Below are positions 1,812 to 19,371 of a stretch of 64,000 bases of DNA, piece after piece (within the stretch, counting starts at the first letter, position 1; every line of letters begins with the position of its first letter). Origin of the DNA: Candidatus Nomurabacteria bacterium. GTDB lineage: Bacteria > Patescibacteriota > Minisyncoccia > Phycocordibacterales > UBA9973. The notes beneath the pieces were generated by a model that was not told the origin of the DNA, ran no database searches, and worked only from the letters and a program-made list of their open reading frames with translations. A program made the position numbers and the translations under genes. The stretch is from NCBI GenBank assembly GCA_023267215.1, contig JAHFNS010000002.1, positions 128,892 to 192,891 of the forward strand, given 5' to 3'.

Positions 1812-3005
1812 TTAACCCAATATTTTTGTGACCACTCCTGCACCTACTGTTTTACCTCCTTCGCGAATAGCAAATCTCTGCGCTTCTTCAAGGGCAACTG
1901 GAGTAACTAATTTAACTGTGATCTTTACTGTATCTCCAGGCATAACCATTTCTACTCCTTCAGCGAGAGTTACATCTCCAGTAACATCTGTCGTACGAAT
2001 ATAGAATTGAGGTTTGTAACCTTTAAAGAATGGGGTGTGACGTCCACCTTCCTCTTTTTTCAAAACATAAATCTCACAAGTAAAATTATCATGTGGAGTA
2101 ACTGTACCTGGCTTTGCAAGGACCTGTCCACGAGTAATATCTTCTTTCTTTAATCCACGAAGCAATACTCCGGCATTGTCTCCAGCCATACCTTCTTGTA
2201 AGTTTTTGTTAAACATTTCAATACCAGTAACGGTTGTTTTTTGAGTAGGTTTAATTCCAACAATTTCTACTTCCTCACCAACCTTTACTACTCCTCTTTC
2301 TATTTTACCAGTAACAACTGTTCCACGGCCTTCGATTGAAAATATATCTTCAACAGGCATAAGGAAAGGTTTGGTAACATCTCTTACTGGAATAGGAATA
2401 TAAGTATCAAGAGCATCGGTTAATTCAAGAATTTTCTTTGCCCATTCATCGTTCAAATCTTTTGCTTCAAGAGCTTTCAAGGCAGAACCTCGAATGATAG
2501 GTGCATTTACACCATCAAAGCCTTGTTTAGTTAGAAGTTCACGAATTTCTTCTTCCACTAAATCAAGCATATCTTTATCATCAACCATATCGCATTTGTT
2601 TAAGAAAACGATCATTTTTGGAACACCAACTTGTTTTGCAAGAAGAACGTGTTCACGGGTTTGTGGCATAGCACCATCTGTAGCGGCAACCACCAAAATA
2701 GCACCGTCCATCTGAGCGGCACCTGTAATCATGTTTTTAATGTAGTCAGCGTGACCTGGAGCATCAATGTGCGCATAGTGACGAGCGTCAGTAGCATATT
2801 CATTGTGTGAAATGTTAATAGTGATTCCACGAGCTTTTTCTTCTGGGGCATTGTCGATTTGGTCAACACCACGAAGTCTGACTGTTTTACCAGCCATATT
2901 AAGCACATGCAAAATTGCCGCAGTTAAGGTTGTCTTACCATGGTCAACGTGACCAATGGTGCCGACGTTAATATGCGGTTTATCTCTTTTAAATTCTTCT
3001 GCCAT
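1812..3005 (-). CDS. tuf: Elongation factor Tu
   Basis: 397 aa with [23 protein letters not shown]-motifs and full EF-Tu domain II/III similarity. Confidence 0.95.
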
Positions 3006-9700: not shown

Positions 9701-9944
9701 GTTTTTCTTTGGCTATAACTTTTTCCACAAAGTAATCATTAATCGGCAAGAAATAAACTTCATCTGCTAAAGATTTTGATGTCTGAAAAGTGGCAATATT
9801 TGGATTTACTAAAATAACTTTTATTTTTTCTTCCTTCAAGGCTTTTATCGCCTGACTACCGCTATAATCAAATTCACCTGCTTCACCTATTTTTAACGCG
9901 CCAGATCCCAACACTAATATTTTTTTAAATTTTTTCTTATTCAT
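6714..9944 (-). CDS. carB: Carbamoyl-phosphate synthase large subunit
   Basis: 1076 aa with duplicated ATP-grasp halves and an MGS-like C-terminal domain; overlaps the carA stop by 4 nt. Confidence 0.95.
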   Translation of the reverse strand: MNKKKFKKILVLGSGALKIGEAGEFDYSGSQAIKALKEEKIKVILVNPNIATFQTSKSLADEVYFLPINDYFVEKVIAKEKPDGIMLSFGGQTALNCGLNLEAKGVFKKYNIKVLGTSTESIKLTEDRQLFADHLKSIDIPIPPSGSAVNLKGAQKIAKEIGFPLMIRAAFALGGQKSGVATNEKELEEIVEGALAISPQVLIEKYLHFFKEIEYEVVRDEFNNIVTVCNMENFDPLGIHTGDSIVIAPSQTLSNREYYSLREASIKIVQSLKIVGECNVQFALNPSASTVDGKVDYFVIEVNARLSRSSALASKATGYPLAYVAAKLALGKSLIEIKNKITKVTQSFFEPALDYVAIKMPRWDLEKFKGAEEQITSAMKSVGEVMAIGRSFEEALQKAVRMQSGLIEGVTDNGFKDEKELKKFLTIPTPKRLFALTAGLMKGMTVKNLYNITGVNPWFLSRLENIVRVEKELLKTHKQKKEIKKEEMLELKQTGFSDKKIGILCGKTEFQIRKLRKSFGIKPSIFAIDTLAGEVPSKTNYLYLTYHGNHNDVLPLGDKAIAVLGSGPYHIGSSVEFDWSCVYTAMALKRHKKKSIIINCNPETVSTDYDMSDRLYFENLSFETVADIFEFECAYGLIISVGGQRPNNLAKKLSTEGFHILGTSASDIDRAEDRNLFSALLDKLNITQPKWQSFTNMQKALKFIEIEGFPVLVRPSYVLSGSAMSVCYNKNELRNFVSKAVVLSGEYPITISQYIENAKELEFDAVAQGGQIMIYGISEHVENAGVHSGDATIVYPTQRVYASTEFQLREISQKIAKELNITGPFNIQFLVKDNRPSVIEVNLRASRTFPLLSKAMDANFPEIAVDAFFGKALAHKFIYPKNVIVKSPQFSFARLLGADPVLRVEMSSTGEVACFGKDYDEALLKSIFSTNKFDVDKKTVLLSLGGSLNKAKFLEAVNTLINIGYKIFATDTTAEFLKSHNIDCMVVRKAFEQSPNALDIIISKKVAFVVNLSKNKLESKIKLNSITDGFRIRRATVDNQIPLFTDLHLARAFIKALGHYKISDLEIKSYKEYLQN

Positions 9945-11047
9945 TTTATTTTATCCTTTTTATTTATTAAACCAGCTTTTTCTAAAAAGAAATCAAATAT
10001 CCAATCAGTATCAAGTGGCCCTGGAGAACTTTCTGGGTGGAACTGTACAGACATAAAAGGCAATTTTTTATGAATAATCCCTTCATTGGTATTATCGTTA
10101 GCATTATAAAACCATTCTCTAAATCCAGTCGGTATCTTTTTGACAGAAAATCCGTGATTCTGCGTTGTAAGATAACATCGTTTTGTATCATTTTGTACAC
10201 AAGGTTGATTTTGACTACGATGCCCAAATTTAAGTTTGTAAGTAGTACCACCAGAAGCAAGAGCTAAAATTTGATTCCCCAAACAAATACCTAAAATAGG
10301 AATTTTTTGTTTAATAATTTTTTTAACATTTTTTATTGTTGCTTTCGCTTTCATTGGGTCCCCTGGACCATTGGAAATTACCACACCCCTAAATGGAAAA
10401 TCAAGTTTTGTGACATCTGTATCCCAGGGAACTACAACGATTTTAAATCCTCGAGCAACCATCCTCCTCAATATATTAAATTTCATTCCACAGTCTATAA
10501 CTACAATCGTCTCTCTCCCGATACCAAATTCTTTTATTTTTTTTGTAGAAACTTCAGCTGGTAAATTTCTCAAATTTGGATCTACAAAGGAAATTTTTTC
10601 ATTGTTTTTTTTCTGATCAAATTGAATCTTGCCTAACATTACTCCCTCTGTTCTTAATTTTTGAGTAAGTCTTCTGGTATCTTTTATTTCCAATGCTGGG
10701 ATATTTTGTTCTTTCAACCAAGCTCCAAGAGACATTTGAGATGCATGGTGAAACGGTGTATCAATATAATTACAAACTATTAATCCTGATATTTGTATTT
10801 TTTCAGATTCCCATAATTCCTTTCTGGGCACACCATAATTACCAACTAGAGGATATGTTAAAACCAAAATTTGACCTCTAAAAGATGGGTCTGTTAAAGC
10901 TTCTGGGTAACCTACCATACCGGTTGCAAAAACTACTTCACCAGAAATAGATTTTAGAGAAGAAATATTAGCACCAAAACTTTTACCTTCATAGGAACTT
11001 CCGTCTTTTAATATCAATTTAACTTTTTTATTATTTTTACTTCTCAT
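9941..11047 (-). CDS. carA: Carbamoyl-phosphate synthase small (glutamine amidotransferase) subunit
   Basis: GICLGNQILA catalytic-Cys motif and class I GATase His (FHPES). Confidence 0.9.
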   Translation of the reverse strand: MRSKNNKKVKLILKDGSSYEGKSFGANISSLKSISGEVVFATGMVGYPEALTDPSFRGQILVLTYPLVGNYGVPRKELWESEKIQISGLIVCNYIDTPFHHASQMSLGAWLKEQNIPALEIKDTRRLTQKLRTEGVMLGKIQFDQKKNNEKISFVDPNLRNLPAEVSTKKIKEFGIGRETIVVIDCGMKFNILRRMVARGFKIVVVPWDTDVTKLDFPFRGVVISNGPGDPMKAKATIKNVKKIIKQKIPILGICLGNQILALASGGTTYKLKFGHRSQNQPCVQNDTKRCYLTTQNHGFSVKKIPTGFREWFYNANDNTNEGIIHKKLPFMSVQFHPESSPGPLDTDWIFDFFLEKAGLINKKDKIK

Positions 11048-12284
11048 ATATTTTACCTTTTACTATAGTCATAATTACACTCCCCGGAAAAGTCATCCCC
11101 TCAAATGGGGACCATTTGCATTTTGTTTTCAATATTTCTTTTGTAATAAGAACTGGTTTATTCATATCAATTACCGTCAAAGATCCTATATATCCCTCTT
11201 TTACTTCTCCATATTTATTTTTTGTAAATTGATTGATAAATTTAGCTCCATTATAACTGCAAACTCTAACAATTTCTTTTTCTGTAAAATTATGTTCCTT
11301 CATAAGCCAAGTGGCGAAAGGTCCGTAAGTATCTAAATGTGGTATACCAGAAATCCCTTTTTCCTTTTCGGTCATTGTGTGTGGAGCATGATCAGTGGCT
11401 AAATAATCAATATCTCCATTTTTTAAAGCATTAATCAAATAAAAACTTTCCTCTGTCCCGCGAATAGGTGGATTAACTTGAAGCATCTTTTCTCTATTTT
11501 TATCTAAGGCAAATCCATCTTGGTTAGAGAAAAATAAATGATGAGGTGTTATCTCTACCGTTACATTTATTCCACGTGTTTTTGCATCTATTATTTTTTT
11601 AATTCCTTCTATGGTGGAACAATGACAAATTTTCCCAATGAGTTTGTATTTTTCTATTAAATAAAGCGCAAAATCTACAGCAGAGATTTCTGCTTCAGGT
11701 GGTCTTTGCAGTTCGTGAGTCGATTGACCTTTATTCATTTCCAAAATTTCAAAATCTTCACAGTGAAAACTTACATATTGTCCTTCATATAATTTTATAG
11801 TATTTTCTAATTCTTTTTTAGAGCTAAAAAATAATTCTCCTATAGAAGGACCCATAAAAACTTTATAAGGTACAAATTTTGAAAGAGGTTTTGTGTAGAG
11901 TCCAATGCCAGCATAGAGTAATATTTCTATGGAAGACTTTCTAGTTAATTCTTTTTTTTGTTCATAGTTTTCATCATTTGTTGGAGGGACGGGATTATTA
12001 GGCATTTCCGCTATCGCTACCACTCCGCCATTTATAGCAGCCTCCCCAACTGTTTTGAAGTCTTCTTTATAGTCTTGTTTATGACTTATATCTTCTCTTG
12101 CATGAACGTGTATATCTATAAAACCCGGGAAAATTAATTCATCTTTAAAAACAAAATCTGCGGAACCTGTCGGCTCGTTTACTTTAGTAATCAATCCACT
12201 TTCTTGATCAATCTCGATTCTACGACGAATTTGTTCAGTGTTGTTTATAACAACACCTTCTATTGTAAGAATATTATTAGGCAT
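11037..12284 (-). CDS. pyrC: Dihydroorotase (amidohydrolase family)
   Basis: DIHVHARED metal-binding motif and DHAPH motif; first gene of the pyr operon. Confidence 0.8.
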   Translation of the reverse strand: MPNNILTIEGVVINNTEQIRRRIEIDQESGLITKVNEPTGSADFVFKDELIFPGFIDIHVHAREDISHKQDYKEDFKTVGEAAINGGVVAIAEMPNNPVPPTNDENYEQKKELTRKSSIEILLYAGIGLYTKPLSKFVPYKVFMGPSIGELFFSSKKELENTIKLYEGQYVSFHCEDFEILEMNKGQSTHELQRPPEAEISAVDFALYLIEKYKLIGKICHCSTIEGIKKIIDAKTRGINVTVEITPHHLFFSNQDGFALDKNREKMLQVNPPIRGTEESFYLINALKNGDIDYLATDHAPHTMTEKEKGISGIPHLDTYGPFATWLMKEHNFTEKEIVRVCSYNGAKFINQFTKNKYGEVKEGYIGSLTVIDMNKPVLITKEILKTKCKWSPFEGMTFPGSVIMTIVKGKIYEK

Positions 12285-13187: not shown

Positions 13188-13382
13188 TTATCTTTTCTTA
13201 ATTATTGGCACACCTAGATCTTCACAAATCTTTTTTCCTATATGAGTGTTAATTTCATTATGCCTAGGAATAGTAGATGTCCTACCTGTAAAAGTATTAC
13301 ACCAAACACTATGAGAACCACCTTCCCTCAGAAAAACACACCCATATTTACGAATGTGTTTTATAAGATCAATTTGCTTCAT
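13188..13382 (-). CDS. hicA: HicA-family toxin (mRNA interferase)
   Basis: 64 aa: KELIKxLxKxGxxFxRxGGSH..TIPRHxEIN pattern typical of HicA/YcfA. Confidence 0.75.
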   Translation of the reverse strand: MKQIDLIKHIRKYGCVFLREGGSHSVWCNTFTGRTSTIPRHNEINTHIGKKICEDLGVPIIKKR

Positions 13383-13388
13383 AAGAAA

Positions 13389-13616
13389 TTAAGCACAAAC
13401 AGCAAGATTTTCTCGTGTAATAATAGATCGTCCTTCAGATTTTTTTGATAAAAGACGATTACTTTCAAGTATAAGCAAAAGTGCTTCTTTTAGATTTCTT
13501 TTGGTTTCAGACAAAGTTTTACCTTGAGTATTGACCCCTGGAATTTCCTCTATCCAGCCAGAATACCATTTGCCAGATTTTTTATATAAAGCTGTAAATT
13601 GTCGTGATTGTTTCAT
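13389..13616 (-). CDS. hicB: HicB-family antitoxin (short form)
   Basis: 75 aa with a WYSGWIEEIPGVNTQGKTLSE..L.EAL core resembling the HicB N-terminal domain; 6 nt upstream of hicA. Confidence 0.65.
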   Translation of the reverse strand: MKQSRQFTALYKKSGKWYSGWIEEIPGVNTQGKTLSETKRNLKEALLLILESNRLLSKKSEGRSIITRENLAVCA

Positions 13617-13655: not shown

Positions 13656-14648
13656 CTATTTCCTCGTTGCAATGATAGTGCCTGTTATATTATGTCCTTT
13701 ACAATGAGAAAGAACTCCTAAATAAGAATCTATTGATCCTTTTGATAAATTTTCCTTCGCTTTTCGTAATAACCTTTTTTTAGTACTAGTGCGTAAAACT
13801 CTATAATGTGGAAGAATAACATAACCAAGAAAATCTATTCCTTGAGATAATTTTCTAATTTCAACCTTTCTGGGGTGTAATTTTAATTCGAGTTCTGTTT
13901 TTAAAAATTCAAAAATTTTAGGAATGATGGATTCAAGAAATTTTTTTTCCTGAGAAACAATTACAAAATCATCACAATAACGAACATAATATTTTATTTT
14001 CAATTTATGTTTAATATATTGATCAAAAATATTCATATAGACATTAGCAAAAAGTTGGCTTGTCACATTGCCGAGGGGTAATCCTTTCCCTTTAGTTTTT
14101 TCAAAACTTTTTATAATATTATTTAATAACCATTTTGTTTCTGGACATTTAATTTTTGAAAAAAGAATATCTTTTAAAATTTCATGATCTATCGAATCAA
14201 AAAATTTTGAAATATCACACTTCAAAACCCAAACATTGCGAGTATAGTTTTGTGTTTCTTTTCGTAAAAATCTTTCTAATTGATTAACTCCCGAGTGAGT
14301 TCCTTTATTAAATCGACAAGCATATGAATCATATATAAAAGATGAGTCAAAGACCTTATAAAGTTGGCGAAAAATAGCTTGATGCACTACCCTGTCCCGC
14401 ACTTCTGCTTTGTGAATATGTCTGCGTTTTGGGTCATAAACGTAAAATGGTACATACGGTTCATTTATATATGTTTTTCGTCGAAGAGAAAAGTGAATGT
14501 CTAAAATATTTTTTTCTAAATTAAACTCAAATTTTTGTATATCTGGTTTTTTATTTTTTCCACACCGAAATTCTCGCCAAGCGGAAAGAAGATTGGAAGT
14601 TGAAATTATATGATAGAATAAATCACTATGAGTACCCCCCCCCAACAT
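13656..14648 (-). CDS. Diversity-generating retroelement reverse transcriptase
   Basis: RT motifs 2-5 (RDRVVHQAI; LKCDISKFFDSIDHEIL; GLPLGNVTSQLFANVYMN, i.e. the DGR-type [LIV]GxxxSQ; YVRYCDDFVIV). No maturase/endonuclease domains. Cognate TR/VR pair sits 400-900 bp upstream. Confidence 0.85.
   Translation of the reverse strand: MLGGGTHSDLFYHIISTSNLLSAWREFRCGKNKKPDIQKFEFNLEKNILDIHFSLRRKTYINEPYVPFYVYDPKRRHIHKAEVRDRVVHQAIFRQLYKVFDSSFIYDSYACRFNKGTHSGVNQLERFLRKETQNYTRNVWVLKCDISKFFDSIDHEILKDILFSKIKCPETKWLLNNIIKSFEKTKGKGLPLGNVTSQLFANVYMNIFDQYIKHKLKIKYYVRYCDDFVIVSQEKKFLESIIPKIFEFLKTELELKLHPRKVEIRKLSQGIDFLGYVILPHYRVLRTSTKKRLLRKAKENLSKGSIDSYLGVLSHCKGHNITGTIIATRK
14635..14643 (-). repeat. G9 homopolymeric tract (C9 on + strand) in codons 3-5 of the RT gene
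   Basis: ATG TTG GGG GGG GGT (M L G G G); the only G/C run of 7 or more in the window. Candidate slipped-strand phase-variation switch. Confidence 0.6.
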
Positions 14649-14727
14649 CTCCAGTAATATTATTGAGCTCCCCGTTATCCTCCATATAAAGAGATTATAT
14701 AAAATAATATATCAATTAGAAACAAAA

Positions 14728-15015
14728 ATGCCGAAACAAAATAAACTCGGCATTCATAAAAAAGTAGAAGAATATGTTCTACGAATTTTAACTCTTTTGA
14801 TAGATTCTGCACTTCGAAGTAAACAAGACAAAATACAGACCCTAAATCAAGCACGTCGAGATATTGAAGTACTAAAACATCTTATTCGTTTAGAATATGA
14901 ACTTAATATAATAAAAGAAAAACAATATATTATTCTCGCACAAATACTTGAAAAAATATCTATGATGACAACAGGTTGGATAAAATCTTTTGGAACACAA
15001 AAGCCCTTATATTGA
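14728..15015 (+). CDS. Putative Avd-like accessory variability determinant (four-helix-bundle family)
   Basis: 95 aa. The C-terminal half (IEVLKHLIRLEYELNIIKEKQYIILAQILEKISMMTTGWIKSF) resembles the four-helix-bundle Avd family. It lies between TR and RT but on the opposite strand, and the SD is weak, so the call is uncertain. Confidence 0.4.
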   Translation: MPKQNKLGIHKKVEEYVLRILTLLIDSALRSKQDKIQTLNQARRDIEVLKHLIRLEYELNIIKEKQYIILAQILEKISMMTTGWIKSFGTQKPLY

Positions 15016-15027
15016 AGGGCTTTTGCC
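15001..15027. promoter_or_regulatory. Perfect 8-bp stem hairpin immediately 3' of the TR
   Basis: AAGCCCTT-ATATTG-AAGGGCTT followed by TTTTG; overlaps the stop of the Avd-like ORF. Could be a bidirectional terminator and/or the TR-flanking structure used for cDNA priming. Confidence 0.45.
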
Positions 15028-15037
15028 TAGAAACTTC

Positions 15038-15148
15038 TGACGGAGGCCGTTGTCGGGATTACGGTTATCACGATTGTCGTTGCTCACGTTGAACTGACCA
15101 TCGTTATTGCGGTTCATGTTCATGGCATTGCCATCCGAATCAAGGGCC
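15038..15148 (-). repeat. DGR template repeat (TR)
   Basis: 111 nt matching VR 15407..15517 except at 11 positions. All 11 are TR adenines (coding strand). Encodes Asn-rich NAMNMNRNNDGQFNVSNDNRDNRNPDNGLRQ; invariant by inference. Confidence 0.8.
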
Positions 15149-15342
15149 CTTTCTGTGAGAGTCCATCCATACCACCACATGTCTTTAAAAAAAACATATT
15201 GAGTTGTTCCGGCTCTAAAGCCGTCTCTGTTTGGAATCTTTATATTCCCTAGACTCCCACAGGCAGTTTCTATATTATGGCAAACTGTCATCCATTTTAA
15301 AATGGATCAGCTTAACAGCCAAATTATTTATATCATAAAAAA

Positions 15343-15365
15343 AGTCCTCAACATAGTTGAGGACT
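15343..15365 (-). terminator. Strong hairpin and T7 run downstream of the DGR target gene
   Basis: AGTCCTCAAC-ATAG-GTTGAGGACT (10-bp stem); on the minus strand followed by TTTTTTT. Confidence 0.55.
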
Positions 15366-15367
15366 TA

Positions 15368-15389
15368 GGTAACAAGTTAAAAAGTTACC
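15368..15389 (-). promoter_or_regulatory. Small hairpin abutting the 3' end of VR
   Basis: GGTAAC-N10-GTTACC, 4 nt after the target stop codon; position matches the VR-flanking hairpin needed for homing in characterised DGRs. Confidence 0.35.
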
Positions 15390-15393
15390 AGTT

Positions 15394-16146
15394 TTAGAAA
15401 TCTACTTGACGGAGGCCGTGGTCGGGATAACGGTAATCACGATAGTCGTAGCTCACGTCGAACTGACCATCGTTATTGCGGCTCATGCTCATGGCACCGC
15501 CAACCGAATCAAGGGCCGCAAAACGAGTAAGCCCTTTGACGTCGTACATTTTATTAGTTTCAGTACGATATCGGAAAGCAGAGATAATACCTTCTTTTGG
15601 AATCATGAATTTTATATTTTCATTAATTCCATCATCATAACTTTTGTTAAGCAAATCCGGTTCATCCCCACCGACATGACATGTTGCGTAATCACTCGTG
15701 GGACGTACCTGCTGTTCCTTAATGGATTCGGCAATGTTGTCATAATATTTCCAAACCGCATTATTGCCAAATTTTTTTGCATAGGCTTCAAAATATTGAT
15801 CTTCAGTAATATCAGTAAAGATATATTCCAGCCGTTTCATTTTTTCGTTCCATGCAGGAAGCACTATTTTTGACCAATCAATAGTACGACTGAAGAATTT
15901 TTTGTAAAAAACTTCAATTCGTCTTTTTTCTTCAATCCATGGGTCAATTTCAATTCCAAAAATTTCTTTGCAAAAATTTTCGGTAAGTTTTTCAACTTCA
16001 TGATCTGGACTTAAAACAAAGTGATTGGCACTTTCAAATGAAAGCTTTCCACTATCTCCCAAAACACGAGTGATTGTTCCGGCAATTTTAAAGCCGATTG
16101 CAACTAACTGACCTGAGGTGGCAGGTGTAATAACTTGATTTGTCAT
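15394..16146 (-). CDS. DGR variable target protein (C-terminal VR, probable C-type-lectin-like fold)
   Basis: 250 aa. The last 37 residues (GAMSMSRNNDGQFDVSYDYRDYRYPDHGLRQVDF) are encoded by VR; Tyr/Ser/His/Asp replace the TR Asn codons. No signal peptide seen. Confidence 0.8.
   Translation of the reverse strand: MTNQVITPATSGQLVAIGFKIAGTITRVLGDSGKLSFESANHFVLSPDHEVEKLTENFCKEIFGIEIDPWIEEKRRIEVFYKKFFSRTIDWSKIVLPAWNEKMKRLEYIFTDITEDQYFEAYAKKFGNNAVWKYYDNIAESIKEQQVRPTSDYATCHVGGDEPDLLNKSYDDGINENIKFMIPKEGIISAFRYRTETNKMYDVKGLTRFAALDSVGGAMSMSRNNDGQFDVSYDYRDYRYPDHGLRQVDF
15407..15517 (-). repeat. DGR variable repeat (VR)
   Basis: See TR. The 3' (IMH-like) end is GC-rich: CGGCCTCCGTCA. Confidence 0.8.
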
Positions 16147-16255: not shown

Positions 16256-18409
16256 TTATTTACGAGACGAGATTATTACTTCAGCCACGTTTTGTGGGAC
16301 TATGTCATAACGTAAAAATTCCATAGTGAAAGATGCACGTCCTTCAGTCATTGAACGAAGACCTGTCATGTATCCGAACATTTCAGAAAGAGGAACAACG
16401 GCACGAAGCGCTTTATTCATTCCGCGATCTTCCATACCTTCAATAATTCCACGCTTGGAAGAAAGATTACCTGTGATGTCTCCCATGAATTTTTCTGGAG
16501 TAACGACTTCCACTTTCATCATTGGTTCAAGAATAACTGGTTTTGCGCGCTTACAAGCATCTTGTACAGCCATAGAAGCTGCGATTTTAAAAGCCATTTC
16601 ATTGGAGTCCACTTCATGGAAAGAACCATCCCAAAGTTCAACAGAAACATTAACCATTTTGAATCCCGCAAGTACTCCGCGATCAAGACCTTCTTTAAAT
16701 CCTTTTTCGCAGGGAGCAATATATTCTTGTGGAATAGCACCTCCTTTAATCGTATTTATAAATTCAAAACCATTCGCTCTTTTTGTATTTTTTGGTAAAT
16801 CTTCCACTTCTTCTTTTGTAAGAGGCGTCATTGGTTTAACTTTAATTTTAACGTGACCGTAGTTTCCACGTCCACCAGATTGTTTTATGTATTTACCTTC
16901 TGCATCTGCATTATTGGTAATGGTCTCACGGTAAGCCACTTGTGGTTTACCTACATTAGCTTCAACAGTAAATTCTCTTTTCATGCGGTCTACAATAATT
17001 TCCAGATGAAGTTCTCCCATTCCAGCAATAATTGTCTCCCCTGTTTCTTGATCAGTACTAACTCGGAAAGTAGGATCTTCTTGTGCGAGACGATTGAGTG
17101 CCATACCCATTTTTTCTTGGTCTGCTTTTGTCTTTGGTTCAATACGAAGTTGAATAACAGGCTCAGGGAAAATTATTCTATCTAACTCAATTGGGTGTTC
17201 TTCGTCACAAATAGTATCAGAAGTGATAGTGTCTTTAAGTCCAACAGCCGCCGCGATTTCTCCAGCAAAAACTTTTTTCATTTCTTCTCGGTCATTCGCA
17301 TGCATACGAAGTATTCGTCCTATACGTTCTTTGTTGCGAGTACGAGGATTATAGATATAAGAACCAGCGGAAAGAGTTCCGGAATAAACTCTAAAGAAAA
17401 TAAGTTGCCCAACAAACGGATCCGTGGCAACCTTAAAGGCTAAAGCAGAAAAAGGCTCTTCGTCCGAAGCATGTCTCATAATAGGTTCATCATTATTGTC
17501 TGGATCTGTCCCCCCAATAGGTGGAATATCAAGCGGAGAAGGAAGATAGTCTACAACACCGTCGAGCACTAGCTGAACTCCTTTATTTTTTAAAGCGGAT
17601 CCAGCATAAACTGGGAAAATTTCATTAGCGATAACTCCTTTTCTTAAAAGTTTTTTCAAAACAACAGCATCAGGAATTTTTCCTTCGAAATAATCATTCA
17701 TGACAGCATCATCTTGTTCTACAATCTTTTCAATAAGTTCATGATGATATTTTTCTGCATCTGCCTTCATATCTTCTGGAATCTCTTTTTCGATAACTTT
17801 ATTACCCATTTCTCCCTCAAAGTAATAAGCTTTCATTGTGAATAAGTCCACAACACCTTCATGTTTTTCTTCAAGACCAATAGGAATTTGCATGCGAACA
17901 GCTTTCTTGGTTAGACGATCTAAAATAGTTGCATATGAATGTTCAAAAGATGCACCTATTCTGTCTAATTTATTTATAAAACAAATACGAGGAACTTTCG
18001 CTTCATCAGCATAACGCCAGTTTGTTTCTGATTGAGGTTCAACTCCAGCCACTCCGTCAAAAACAACAACAGCGCCGTCTAGTACACGAAGAGATCTTTT
18101 CACTTCTACGGTAAAATCTATGTGCCCAGGTGTATCAATAATATTAAAACGGTGTTTTTTACTTTTGTCTGTTGGGGAAGCATAAGTAGGCGTCCAGAAA
18201 CAAGTGACAGCAGCAGAAGTGATAGTGATACCTCTTTCTCTTTCTTGTTCCATCCAGTCTGTGGTAGTCTCTCCATCATGAACCTCTCCTATTTTATGAG
18301 AAACGCCAGTATAAAAAAGCACACGTTCTGTCGTAGTTGTTTTACCAGCATCGATGTGTGCAATAATTCCAATATTTCTAACTTTTTCTAGTGGATAGTC
18401 TCGTTCCAT
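16256..18409 (-). CDS. fusA: Elongation factor G
   Basis: 717 aa; [24 protein letters not shown] and EF-G domains IV/V. Confidence 0.95.
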
Positions 18410-18418
18410 ATATTTATA

Positions 18419-18889
18419 TTACCAAGCGAAATGAGCAAAAGCCTTGTTGGCTTCAGCCATCTTGTGAGTATCTTCTCTTTTCTTGATAGCAGAACCTTCA
18501 TTCTTAGAAGCAGCAATAAGCTCGTCAGCAAGTTTTAAGTGCATTTCACGTCCTTTACCTTTACGAGCAGCATCACGAATCCATCTCATAGCTAGAGCGA
18601 GTCTTCTTTCAGGACGTACTTCTCTTGGCACCTGGTAGTTCGCACCACCAATACGCTTTGAACGAACTTCTGTAAGTGGTCCTGCATTTTTCATTGCTAA
18701 GTCGAAAATCTCAAGAGGATTTGGATTGCCTGTTTTTTCTTTTATAACATCAAAAGCTTTATATACTATCTTTCTTGAAGTTTCTTTTTTACCAGACCAC
18801 ATAACGTAGTTGATAAATTTCTCCAATTTTTGAGAATTATAATTGAAATCTGGCTTAACTATATTTCGATTGTTTATTTTACGTCGCAT
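18419..18889 (-). CDS. rpsG: 30S ribosomal protein S7
   Basis: 156 aa; S7 signature region (RRLALAMRWIRDAAR, AHFAW C-terminus). Confidence 0.9.
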   Translation of the reverse strand: MRRKINNRNIVKPDFNYNSQKLEKFINYVMWSGKKETSRKIVYKAFDVIKEKTGNPNPLEIFDLAMKNAGPLTEVRSKRIGGANYQVPREVRPERRLALAMRWIRDAARKGKGREMHLKLADELIAASKNEGSAIKKREDTHKMAEANKAFAHFAW

Positions 18890-18894
18890 AATTT

Positions 18895-19317
18895 TTATTT
18901 TTTAACTACTTTTGGTCTCTTGTTTCCATAAAGAGATCTACCTTGTCTCCTCTTCTCAACTCCTTGAGTATCGAGTACTCCTCGAACAATGTGATATCTT
19001 ACTCCAATCAAGTCTTTCACACGTCCCCCACGAAGCATCACAACAGAGTGTTCTTGTAGGTTGTGTCCTTCACCAGGGATATAAGCTGTCACTTCCATGC
19101 CATTGGTTAAACGAACTCTAGCAATCTTTCGGAGAGCAGAGTTTGGTTTTTTAGGAGTAGTAGTCGAAACTTTTGTACAGACACCTCTTTTAAAGGGTGC
19201 AGGAAAAAACACTGGTCTATTTTTCAAAACATTAAATCCTCGCGCCAAAGCAACCGTTTTTGACTTGGCTTTGGTTTTAACTCTATTCTTTTTAATTAAT
19301 TGATTTACTGTTGGCAT
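18895..19317 (-). CDS. rpsL: 30S ribosomal protein S12
   Basis: [20 protein letters not shown] core. The ORF-track start at 19338 adds 7 spurious residues; the true start is probably the MPTVNQ Met. Confidence 0.9.
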
Positions 19318-19371
19318 AATTAAACAAAATAGCCCCATAGGACTATTAGAAATAATATACTATTAAAAAAT

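Follow-up and report, generated by a model that had tools for sequence, protein, structure and literature searches.

A conserved poly-G run in the overlapping 5' ends of avd and the reverse transcriptase gene as a candidate contingency switch in diversity-generating retroelements of Patescibacteria

Results

A diversity-generating retroelement in a Nomurabacteria genome

We analyzed 64 kb of the genome of a Candidatus Nomurabacteria bacterium (contig JAHFNS010000002.1, positions 128,892 to 192,891; hereafter, the window), which carries a genuine diversity-generating retroelement (DGR) with a long G run in the overlapping 5' ends of two of its genes. A profile search identified a 330-amino-acid (aa) open reading frame (ORF) on the minus strand (MLGGGTHS...) as an RVT_1 reverse transcriptase (RT; E = 1.7e-26). 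Its translation contains the DGR signature LGNVTSQ (...LPLGNVTSQLF...), which follows the motif [I/V/L]GxxxSQ defined for DGR RTs (PMC7826257). The variable repeat (VR; 15517..15395) differs from the template repeat (TR; 15148..15028) by 12 substitutions, 12/12 at TR adenines (6 to T, 5 to G, and 1 to C), and by two single-base indels at the 3' end. In the window, these adenine-specific differences are a historical record only. The parts of the element are as follows.

13656..14648, minus strand: DGR RT ORF as assembled, 330 aa (RVT_1; LGNVTSQ); starts at a non-conserved ATG, 14648..14646
14635..14643: homopolymer, G9 in RT sense (minus strand) and C9 in avd sense (plus strand), inside the 5' overlap of both genes
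14728..15015, plus strand: avd ORF as gene callers see it, 95 aa; matches Avd profiles from position 21
15028..15148, minus strand: TR, from the TR/VR comparison
15395..15517, minus strand: VR, at the 3' end of the target gene, from the TR/VR comparison
15394..16146, minus strand: DGR target gene, 250 aa, with no Pfam family (ORF translation, Pfam search)

The order is target gene with VR, TR (minus), avd (plus, from 14628 or 14728 to 15015), and RT (minus, from 14685 or 14648 to 13656). This TR-(avd)-RT layout, with avd opposite to RT, is DGR architecture B3, and avd is opposite in strand to RT in 114 of the 118 related loci with an avd match. The window RT has 7609 homologues, and the nearest are all from Patescibacteria (Paceibacteria, Nomurabacteria, Saccharibacteria, and Uhrbacteria).

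One run lies in the 5' coding regions of two genes

The initial annotation of this DNA pointed to a G9 run in the codons following the ATG of the RT ORF, the only G/C run of at least 7 in 64 kb, and to a GGAG placed 1 nucleotide (nt) before that ATG. Both observations hold. From the ATG at 14648..14646, the minus strand reads ATG TTG GGG GGG GGT ACT across the run, which appears as C9 on the plus strand at 14635..14643 (CCCCCCCCC). The G+C content of the window is 33.2%, and the runners-up are five C6 runs; if bases were independent, 0.014 runs of at least 9 would be expected, and a first-order Markov model predicts ∼0.05. The GGAG at 1 nt is not a usable Shine-Dalgarno (SD) sequence for the ATG at 14648. 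A link between the run and the G/C-rich initiation of mutagenic homing (IMH) element of DGRs was rejected, as the window has no other G/C run of at least 7. No known RNA element accounts for the run, since an Rfam scan of 14300..15450 gave only sub-threshold chance matches.

The run sits within a 58-bp head-to-head 5' overlap of avd and RT. The avd ORF chosen by gene callers begins at an internal ATG; its product leaves positions 1-20 of the Avd profile uncovered and, as assembled, scores below the Pfam bAvd cut-off. The 96 nt upstream of 14728 are open in the avd frame and encode the missing N-terminal helix, with no ATG, GTG, or TTG among them. Adding this stretch extends the match to NF033474 from positions 21-104 to positions 1-104 (44 to 50.6 bits) and raises the Pfam bAvd score from 37.1 to 41.5 bits (cut-off 40). 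The ATG at 14628..14630 shares the frame of the avd body at run lengths of C8 or C11 only. Read from this ATG, the run forms codons 3-5 of avd, and at C8 the product matches NF033474 (DivGenRetAVD) over profile positions 1-104 with E = 1.9e-13, which identifies it as Avd, the four-helix-bundle accessory protein. At C9, the same ATG opens a 9-codon ORF that ends at TAA. A CAT triplet a few bases past the run (in RT sense), the complement of this avd ATG, is conserved across relatives. Translation of avd could conceivably begin at a non-canonical codon, an in-frame ATT or ATC at 14650..14667; these codons are not conserved features.

Changing the run length in silico showed a matching dependence for RT. 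The RT body is in frame with the ATG at 14648 at G6, G9, and G12, and with an ATG 12 codons further upstream (14685..14683; MEDNGELNNITGDVGGGTHS...) at G8 and G11; at G7 and G10 it has no start codon. At G9, the upstream ATG opens a 19-codon dead-end ORF. The ON length class in the window, G8 or G11, thus gives a full-length Avd of 128 aa and an RT of 342 aa together. The assembled length does keep RT in frame with the start that the initial annotation had assigned to it, but it is G8 and G11 that join the RT body to the conserved ATG at 14685. The features that bear on these starts are listed below.

14628..14630, plus strand: conserved avd start ATG; the complementary CAT a few nt past the run is kept across relatives
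14632..14727, plus strand: stretch coding for the Avd N-terminal helix, open and startless; as assembled, the stop TGA at 14629..14631 precedes it (profile extension)
14683..14685, minus strand: conserved RT start ATG, in frame only at G8/G11 (co-phasing statistics, anchored sequence comparison)
14694..14699, minus strand: TATAAT, -10-like box ending 8 nt before the RT ATG at 14685; putative promoter with a weak -35 (motif)
14611..14619, plus strand: TGATAGAAT, an extended -10-like box within RT coding sequence, its end 8 nt upstream of the avd ATG; putative avd promoter (motif)

A -10-like box ends 7-11 nt upstream of the conserved RT ATG in 48% of 63 loci, and in 25% the box is a perfect TATAAT; at control ATGs, the figure is 5%. 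Before the avd ATG, such a box is present in 29% of loci, again compared to 5% at control ATGs. SD-like motifs are found at the RT ATG in 1/63 loci and at the avd ATG in 2/63. These motif counts suggest that both genes have leaderless or near-leaderless starts, with promoters at the -10-like boxes. A conserved, leaderless-type RT start at 14685 would explain the badly spaced GGAG at 14648. The ATG at 14648, which the initial annotation took as the RT start, is therefore probably not the native one; the conserved start is at 14685, with TATAAT 8 nt upstream.

The run is kept across related DGRs, and one length class opens both genes

Genome and metagenome collections yielded 160 related loci, of which 145 were scorable at the RT 5' end. 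An uninterrupted run of G7-G15 lies at the homologous position in 95 of these 145 loci (G10 in 32, G9 in 27, G8 in 16, and G11 in 11), so the comparison with homologous DGR RTs shows that the tract is not peculiar to this genome. In RT sense it always reads G, at RT identities down to ∼45% and locus G+C contents of 30-57%. By comparison, 658 kb of flanking sequence contains 14 G/C runs of at least 7, one of which starts a second RT copy. Six further loci with the same two-gene design have (GA)6-10 or (CT)6 in the position of the run, immediately before the RT body (GA in L033, L041, L098, L128, and L138; CT in L058). They follow the same co-phased two-gene frame rule, with three ON and three OFF, and in one case (GA)7 in L098 stands where its relative L012 has G10.

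We then altered the run of each locus by -1, 0, and +1. For 71 de-replicated loci, a full-length Avd (119-143 aa) can be read from the conserved ATG in one length class and one only. In 65 of the 71, this class also places an ATG in frame with the RT body, 10-25 codons upstream; in the other classes, an RT ATG is present in 27 of 142 cases (P = 1e-25). The frequency of an ATG in the non-ON frames, 19% of frame classes, is about that expected by chance. Because the same class holds both ATGs, avd and RT are co-phased, and one length turns both on.

The assembled alleles of the 71 loci comprise 20 ON (28%), 32 in the +1 class, and 19 in the -1 class (P = 0.11 compared to uniform), which makes 72% of alleles out of frame. 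In repeat-less relatives of the same architecture, by contrast, both genes are intact in 18/21 cases (86%; Fisher P = 5e-6). For example, L082 (81% RT identity) has GCAGATAGAGG in place of the run and is intact; another repeat-less locus, L089, has GGTGGAGGT at this position. The OFF alleles are not decaying: in every one of them, a single-base change restores both full-length ORFs. The run is a characteristic feature of TR-(avd)-RT DGRs in Patescibacteria.

Several genomes have two DGRs, each with its own G run (L053/L056 on the same contig; L045/L047 and L065/L067 in the same genomes). Two DGRs of one contig are in different OFF phases, +1 and -1, which would permit combinatorial states. L057 has two RT copies, at 3000 and 5555. 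Two much longer runs lie in the scored region upstream of RT: C39 at positions 1-39 of L061, the start of that locus, and G26 in one metagenome locus. Both are probably assembly or two-color-chemistry artifacts, or else runaway expansions. The C39 run was not counted as a G tract, and the G26 locus, with an indeterminable phase, is outside the phase counts.

Run length and VRs vary among near-identical genomes

The initial annotation suggested looking for length heterogeneity in related genomes, and this is indeed found. Nine assemblies of one groundwater Nomurabacteria strain (L161-L169) have G9 (ON), G10, G11 (six assemblies), or G12 (ON) in identical flanks, and all remaining differences are within the VR. 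L162 and L164, compared over 4,023 nt, are identical except at the run. Two assemblers applied to the same sequencing run (SRR2177986) disagreed on the length, one giving G10 and the other G11. In the adjoining gatA gene, two G6 runs keep their length across all nine assemblies. In another pair, L118 (G9) and L121 (G8) differ by the run and one single-nucleotide polymorphism over 3,359 nt. Within RT clusters formed at 90% identity, the N-termini of members switch frame exactly at the GGG motif; the nine groundwater assemblies come from one such cluster. In a second species, five assemblies (L172-L176) are all at G9 (OFF), and a 97.6%-identical strain is at G11.

Some near-identical genomes share an OFF length and differ mainly in their VRs (L014 compared to L016, L096 to L097, and L173 to L172-L176), which indicates that the DGR machinery worked recently in those lineages. 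VR change despite an OFF consensus could reflect either transient ON variants or low-level decoding of OFF alleles. L014 and L016 also have four differences inside the TR (L014 2528..2542), with A in L016 and G or C in L014; these could come from mis-assembly of VR and TR reads or from a genuine change in the TR.

The run also leaves a mark on public annotations. In public protein calls (P0001-P0164), the start assigned to RT may fall in any of three frames or past the run (for example, MENNRELNN..., ...IWRIIGSS..., MLGAWREF...), and Avd is truncated to ∼95-101 aa. These misplaced starts are a systematic annotation artifact caused by the run. Exact-protein look-ups of the window RT and elongation factor EF-G gave no matches to other assemblies of the strain, and a cluster look-up found the hypothetical G8 products of this genome absent from the searched protein collection.

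Surroundings of the DGR

An 11-bp-stem hairpin followed by a T-run (15342..15366, minus strand) lies directly after the target-gene stop and VR end. It may be a VR-flanking hairpin as in other DGRs, may act as a terminator between the target gene and a distinct TR transcript, or may combine the two roles. Three promoter-like sites (15351..15274, minus strand) come after the hairpin, upstream of the TR. In the gap between the TR end and the avd stop, 14992..15027 (minus strand) matches an Rfam CRISPR direct repeat at 25 bits (gathering score, 35), probably a chance hairpin. Immediately downstream of the RT gene is a pair of HicB-like (UPF0150, 75 aa) and HicA toxin (64 aa) genes, at 13188..13616 (minus strand). 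The DGR is chromosomal, between carA- and dihydroorotase-like genes (9941..12284), a likeness read from translations only, and the genes for EF-G, S7, and S12 (16256..19338, minus strand). Ribosomal-protein genes near some DGRs of the candidate phyla radiation (CPR) are noted by Wu et al. 2018 (PMC5758913).

Discussion

A proposed shared frame switch for Avd and RT

Avd and RT are jointly needed for cDNA synthesis. In the mechanism we propose, RT would run leftwards from its start at 14685 and avd rightwards from its own at 14628, with both frames crossing the same G:C run. Slipped-strand mispairing during DNA replication would add or remove one G; one length class (G8 or G11 here) would put both genes in frame, and the other two would sever both from their conserved starts. 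A one-base change could then turn adenine mutagenesis of the target gene on or off, reversibly and per cell lineage. At G9, avd would be reduced to the N-terminally truncated 95-aa ORF, and RT could start only at the non-conserved internal ATG. We consider it reasonably probable that such a contingency switch toggles Avd and RT together, a reading that for this organism is extrapolated from its relatives.

Several lines of evidence favor this interpretation. Differences in run length are seen at the DNA level, all three phases occur, and other repeat types can take the place of the run. The locus also has features by which simple sequence repeat (SSR) switches are recognized: an uninterrupted, over-represented repeat at the 5' end, a frame shift when its length changes, and polymorphism among near-identical relatives. 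Transcriptome-wide data from Escherichia coli and Buchnera show G/C runs to be poor substrates for RNA-polymerase slippage (PMC5574713), and replication slippage underlies the action of a comparable G-tract within a Bifidobacterium breve gene (PMC9187656); both favor a switch in the DNA. Replication slippage is the likely source of the length polymorphism, and OFF alleles presumably make no functional protein. The initial annotation had already proposed a slippage-prone frame switch on DGR activity. The core of that proposal stands, with ∼100 loci keeping the run, lengths that are random with respect to frame, and G9-G12 in one strain; its limitation to RT does not, as avd shares the run. Its assignment of G9 as the ON state is reversed: the ON length is G8, and G9 is most likely OFF. 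The window run is one base longer than the ON length, and the majority genotype is certainly Avd-deficient and probably OFF.

Other observations weigh against a rapid switch. OFF lengths stay constant while VRs diverge (L096/L097, 97% identity, G9; L172-L176, G9; L014/L016, G10), and a stable, somehow expressed allele would explain such constancy no less well than fast switching does. Among the phases, +1 is the most frequent (45%), an excess that is not significant and that would suit a fixed recoding event. RT in the window keeps an in-frame ATG at G9, so it is perhaps not fully off. Consensus lengths of G9-G12 runs from short reads carry some error, and for the window's own strain, gene calls in NCBI, ENA, and Logan show only G9-type products. 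The promoters are predictions from motifs, and a generic sigma-70/terminator scan singled out none at the overlap; the TATAAT at 14694..14699 went unlisted in this simple scan because its -35 is weak.

How else might the run be explained? It is possible, if rather unlikely, that out-of-frame alleles are recoded, by RNA-polymerase stutter or by +1/-1 ribosomal frameshifting at GGG-G or CCC-C, to give constitutively low, length-tuned amounts of Avd and RT. CCC-C is a classic +1 shift-prone proline site, and re-pairing of tRNAs would be feasible on both GGG-G and CCC-C. Recoding would also account for the 72% of alleles that are out of frame with none decayed, for VRs that keep diversifying under a stable OFF consensus, and for the frequency of the +1 class (45%). 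However, recoding sites usually hold one frame offset across homologues, and the alleles are instead spread over 20 ON, 32 +1, and 19 -1 (P = 0.11 compared to uniform). The (GA)n and (CT)n substitutes are not tRNA-slippery in the +1/-1 sense, transcriptome-wide data from E. coli and Buchnera show no RNA-polymerase insertions in G or C runs (PMC5574713), and differences in run length were observed directly in the DNA of otherwise identical genomes. Recoding and DNA switching could coexist.

A switch of RT alone, in which G9 is ON, RT starts at 14648, and avd is an independent 95-aa gene, is improbable. It has in its favor an unbroken 330-aa RT ORF from 14648 at G9, the start used in public gene calls. 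Yet this ATG is non-conserved, has no usable SD sequence, and belongs to a kind present in 19% of frame classes, about chance, while 12 codons upstream, in the G8 frame, there is a conserved ATG preceded by a -10 box. Moreover, the 95-aa Avd lacks profile positions 1-20, which are encoded just upstream and can be reached only from 14628 at C8. Alternatively, the run might be kept for its structure, as a Gly3/Pro3 peptide, a G-quadruplex, or H-DNA between face-to-face promoters, with the frame effects incidental. GGG is widespread at the RT N-terminus, and each of the repeat types, whether poly-G, (GA)n, or (CT)n, forms a homopurine:homopyrimidine tract. But the peptide motif was rejected, as a pure homopolymer is needless for it at 30-40% G+C and 72% of alleles are out of frame. 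The close relative L082 has IADRG in RT and STSIC in Avd and stays intact, a single G9 run cannot make a canonical four-tract quadruplex, and H-DNA leaves the co-phasing of both conserved ATGs unexplained. Altogether, a structural role is very improbable. Least credible is a sequencing or assembly artifact, with a true length of G8 (ON) and homopolymer miscalls as the scatter among relatives. Long G runs are error-prone, SRR2177986 yields both G10 and G11 from two assemblers, and two loci have G26 and C39 runs at contig ends. However, the G9-type proteins of this genome are present in NCBI, ENA, and Logan records, and the run is contig-internal across many studies, platforms, and assemblers. 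The span of G7-G15 overall and G9-G12 in one strain goes beyond ±1 noise, five independent assemblies concur on an OFF length, the neighboring G6 runs never vary, and repeat-less loci are in frame.

Implications for DGR regulation

If Avd and RT are switched together by the run, this bears on how DGRs are regulated, and on why many look inactive in metagenomes while others diversify fast. It is tempting to generalize. We give an even chance to the broader view that most Patescibacteria DGRs are under a heritable, stochastic master switch, with an unstable repeat (poly-G, or (GA)n/(CT)n in some lineages) that selection has maintained over very long times in the avd/RT overlap, a single slippage event toggling all of the mutagenic machinery, most cells of most populations OFF, and a minority undergoing bursts of target diversification. 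A large share of known DGR diversity, that of Patescibacteria, would then have a binary switch that can be read from sequence, and genomes with several DGRs would carry independent switches with combinatorial states. Confining a risky mutator to a subpopulation is a plausible fitness rationale, and if correct, this would be second-order selection for evolvability acting on a mutator. In practical terms, gene callers systematically mis-annotate these loci, and apparent frameshifts in them should not be taken as pseudogenes.

Simple-repeat phase variation is already known; what would be new is its application to a mutagenic retroelement through a two-gene coding overlap. Our full-text literature searches found nothing that links DGRs to homopolymers, repeats, phase variation, or slippage, with an earlier mention possible in the DGR literature of this radiation. 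As far as we can tell, this is the first contingency locus proposed for the radiation, and it would control a hypermutation system.

Comparison with known systems

The DGR of Bordetella phage BPP-1 (avd-TR-brt) shares with the window an [I/V/L]GxxxSQ RT, Avd, adenine-specific TR-to-VR differences, and a VR at the target C-terminus. Its avd is co-directional with brt, unlike that of the window. We know of no repeat switch in BPP-1. Architecture B3 of Wu et al. 2018 (PMC5758913) is closer, with a layout identical to that of the window in the same bacterial radiation; B3 makes up 90% of the CPR DGR set of that paper. The survey covers gene order only; term searches of its text turned up neither the 5' overlap nor a repeat within it.

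Among known switches, hifA/hifB of Haemophilus influenzae likewise has one repeat between divergent genes that toggles both (van Ham et al. 1993, as summarized in PMC11868660). According to that summary, the hif switch is a (TA)n repeat that alters the -35/-10 spacing of overlapping promoters and acts on transcription, whereas the repeat here lies in both coding regions and would act on frame. The B. breve pilus G-tract (PMC9187656) is similar in being intragenic with an out-of-frame consensus, and such tracts are conserved across the genus. There, out-of-frame alleles are rescued in a subpopulation, and replication slippage was shown by maximum-depth sequencing (PMC9187656). That tract serves a single gene of different function; here there are two genes, and slippage is proposed from sequence comparison.

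The poly-G/C contingency loci of Campylobacter jejuni, Neisseria, and Haemophilus have much in common with the DGR run: an uninterrupted G/C run of at least 7 near the 5' end of an ORF, strongly over-represented in an AT-rich genome, polymorphic in length between near-identical strains, and with coexisting ON and OFF alleles (reviewed in PMC11868660 and PMC4965091). The loci of these host-associated pathogens mostly control surface structures or restriction-modification genes, in contrast to a mutagenic retroelement of uncultured Patescibacteria here. They also differ in that the run here serves two oppositely read genes, an unusual design in which one repeat in a head-to-head coding overlap would co-switch two partner proteins.

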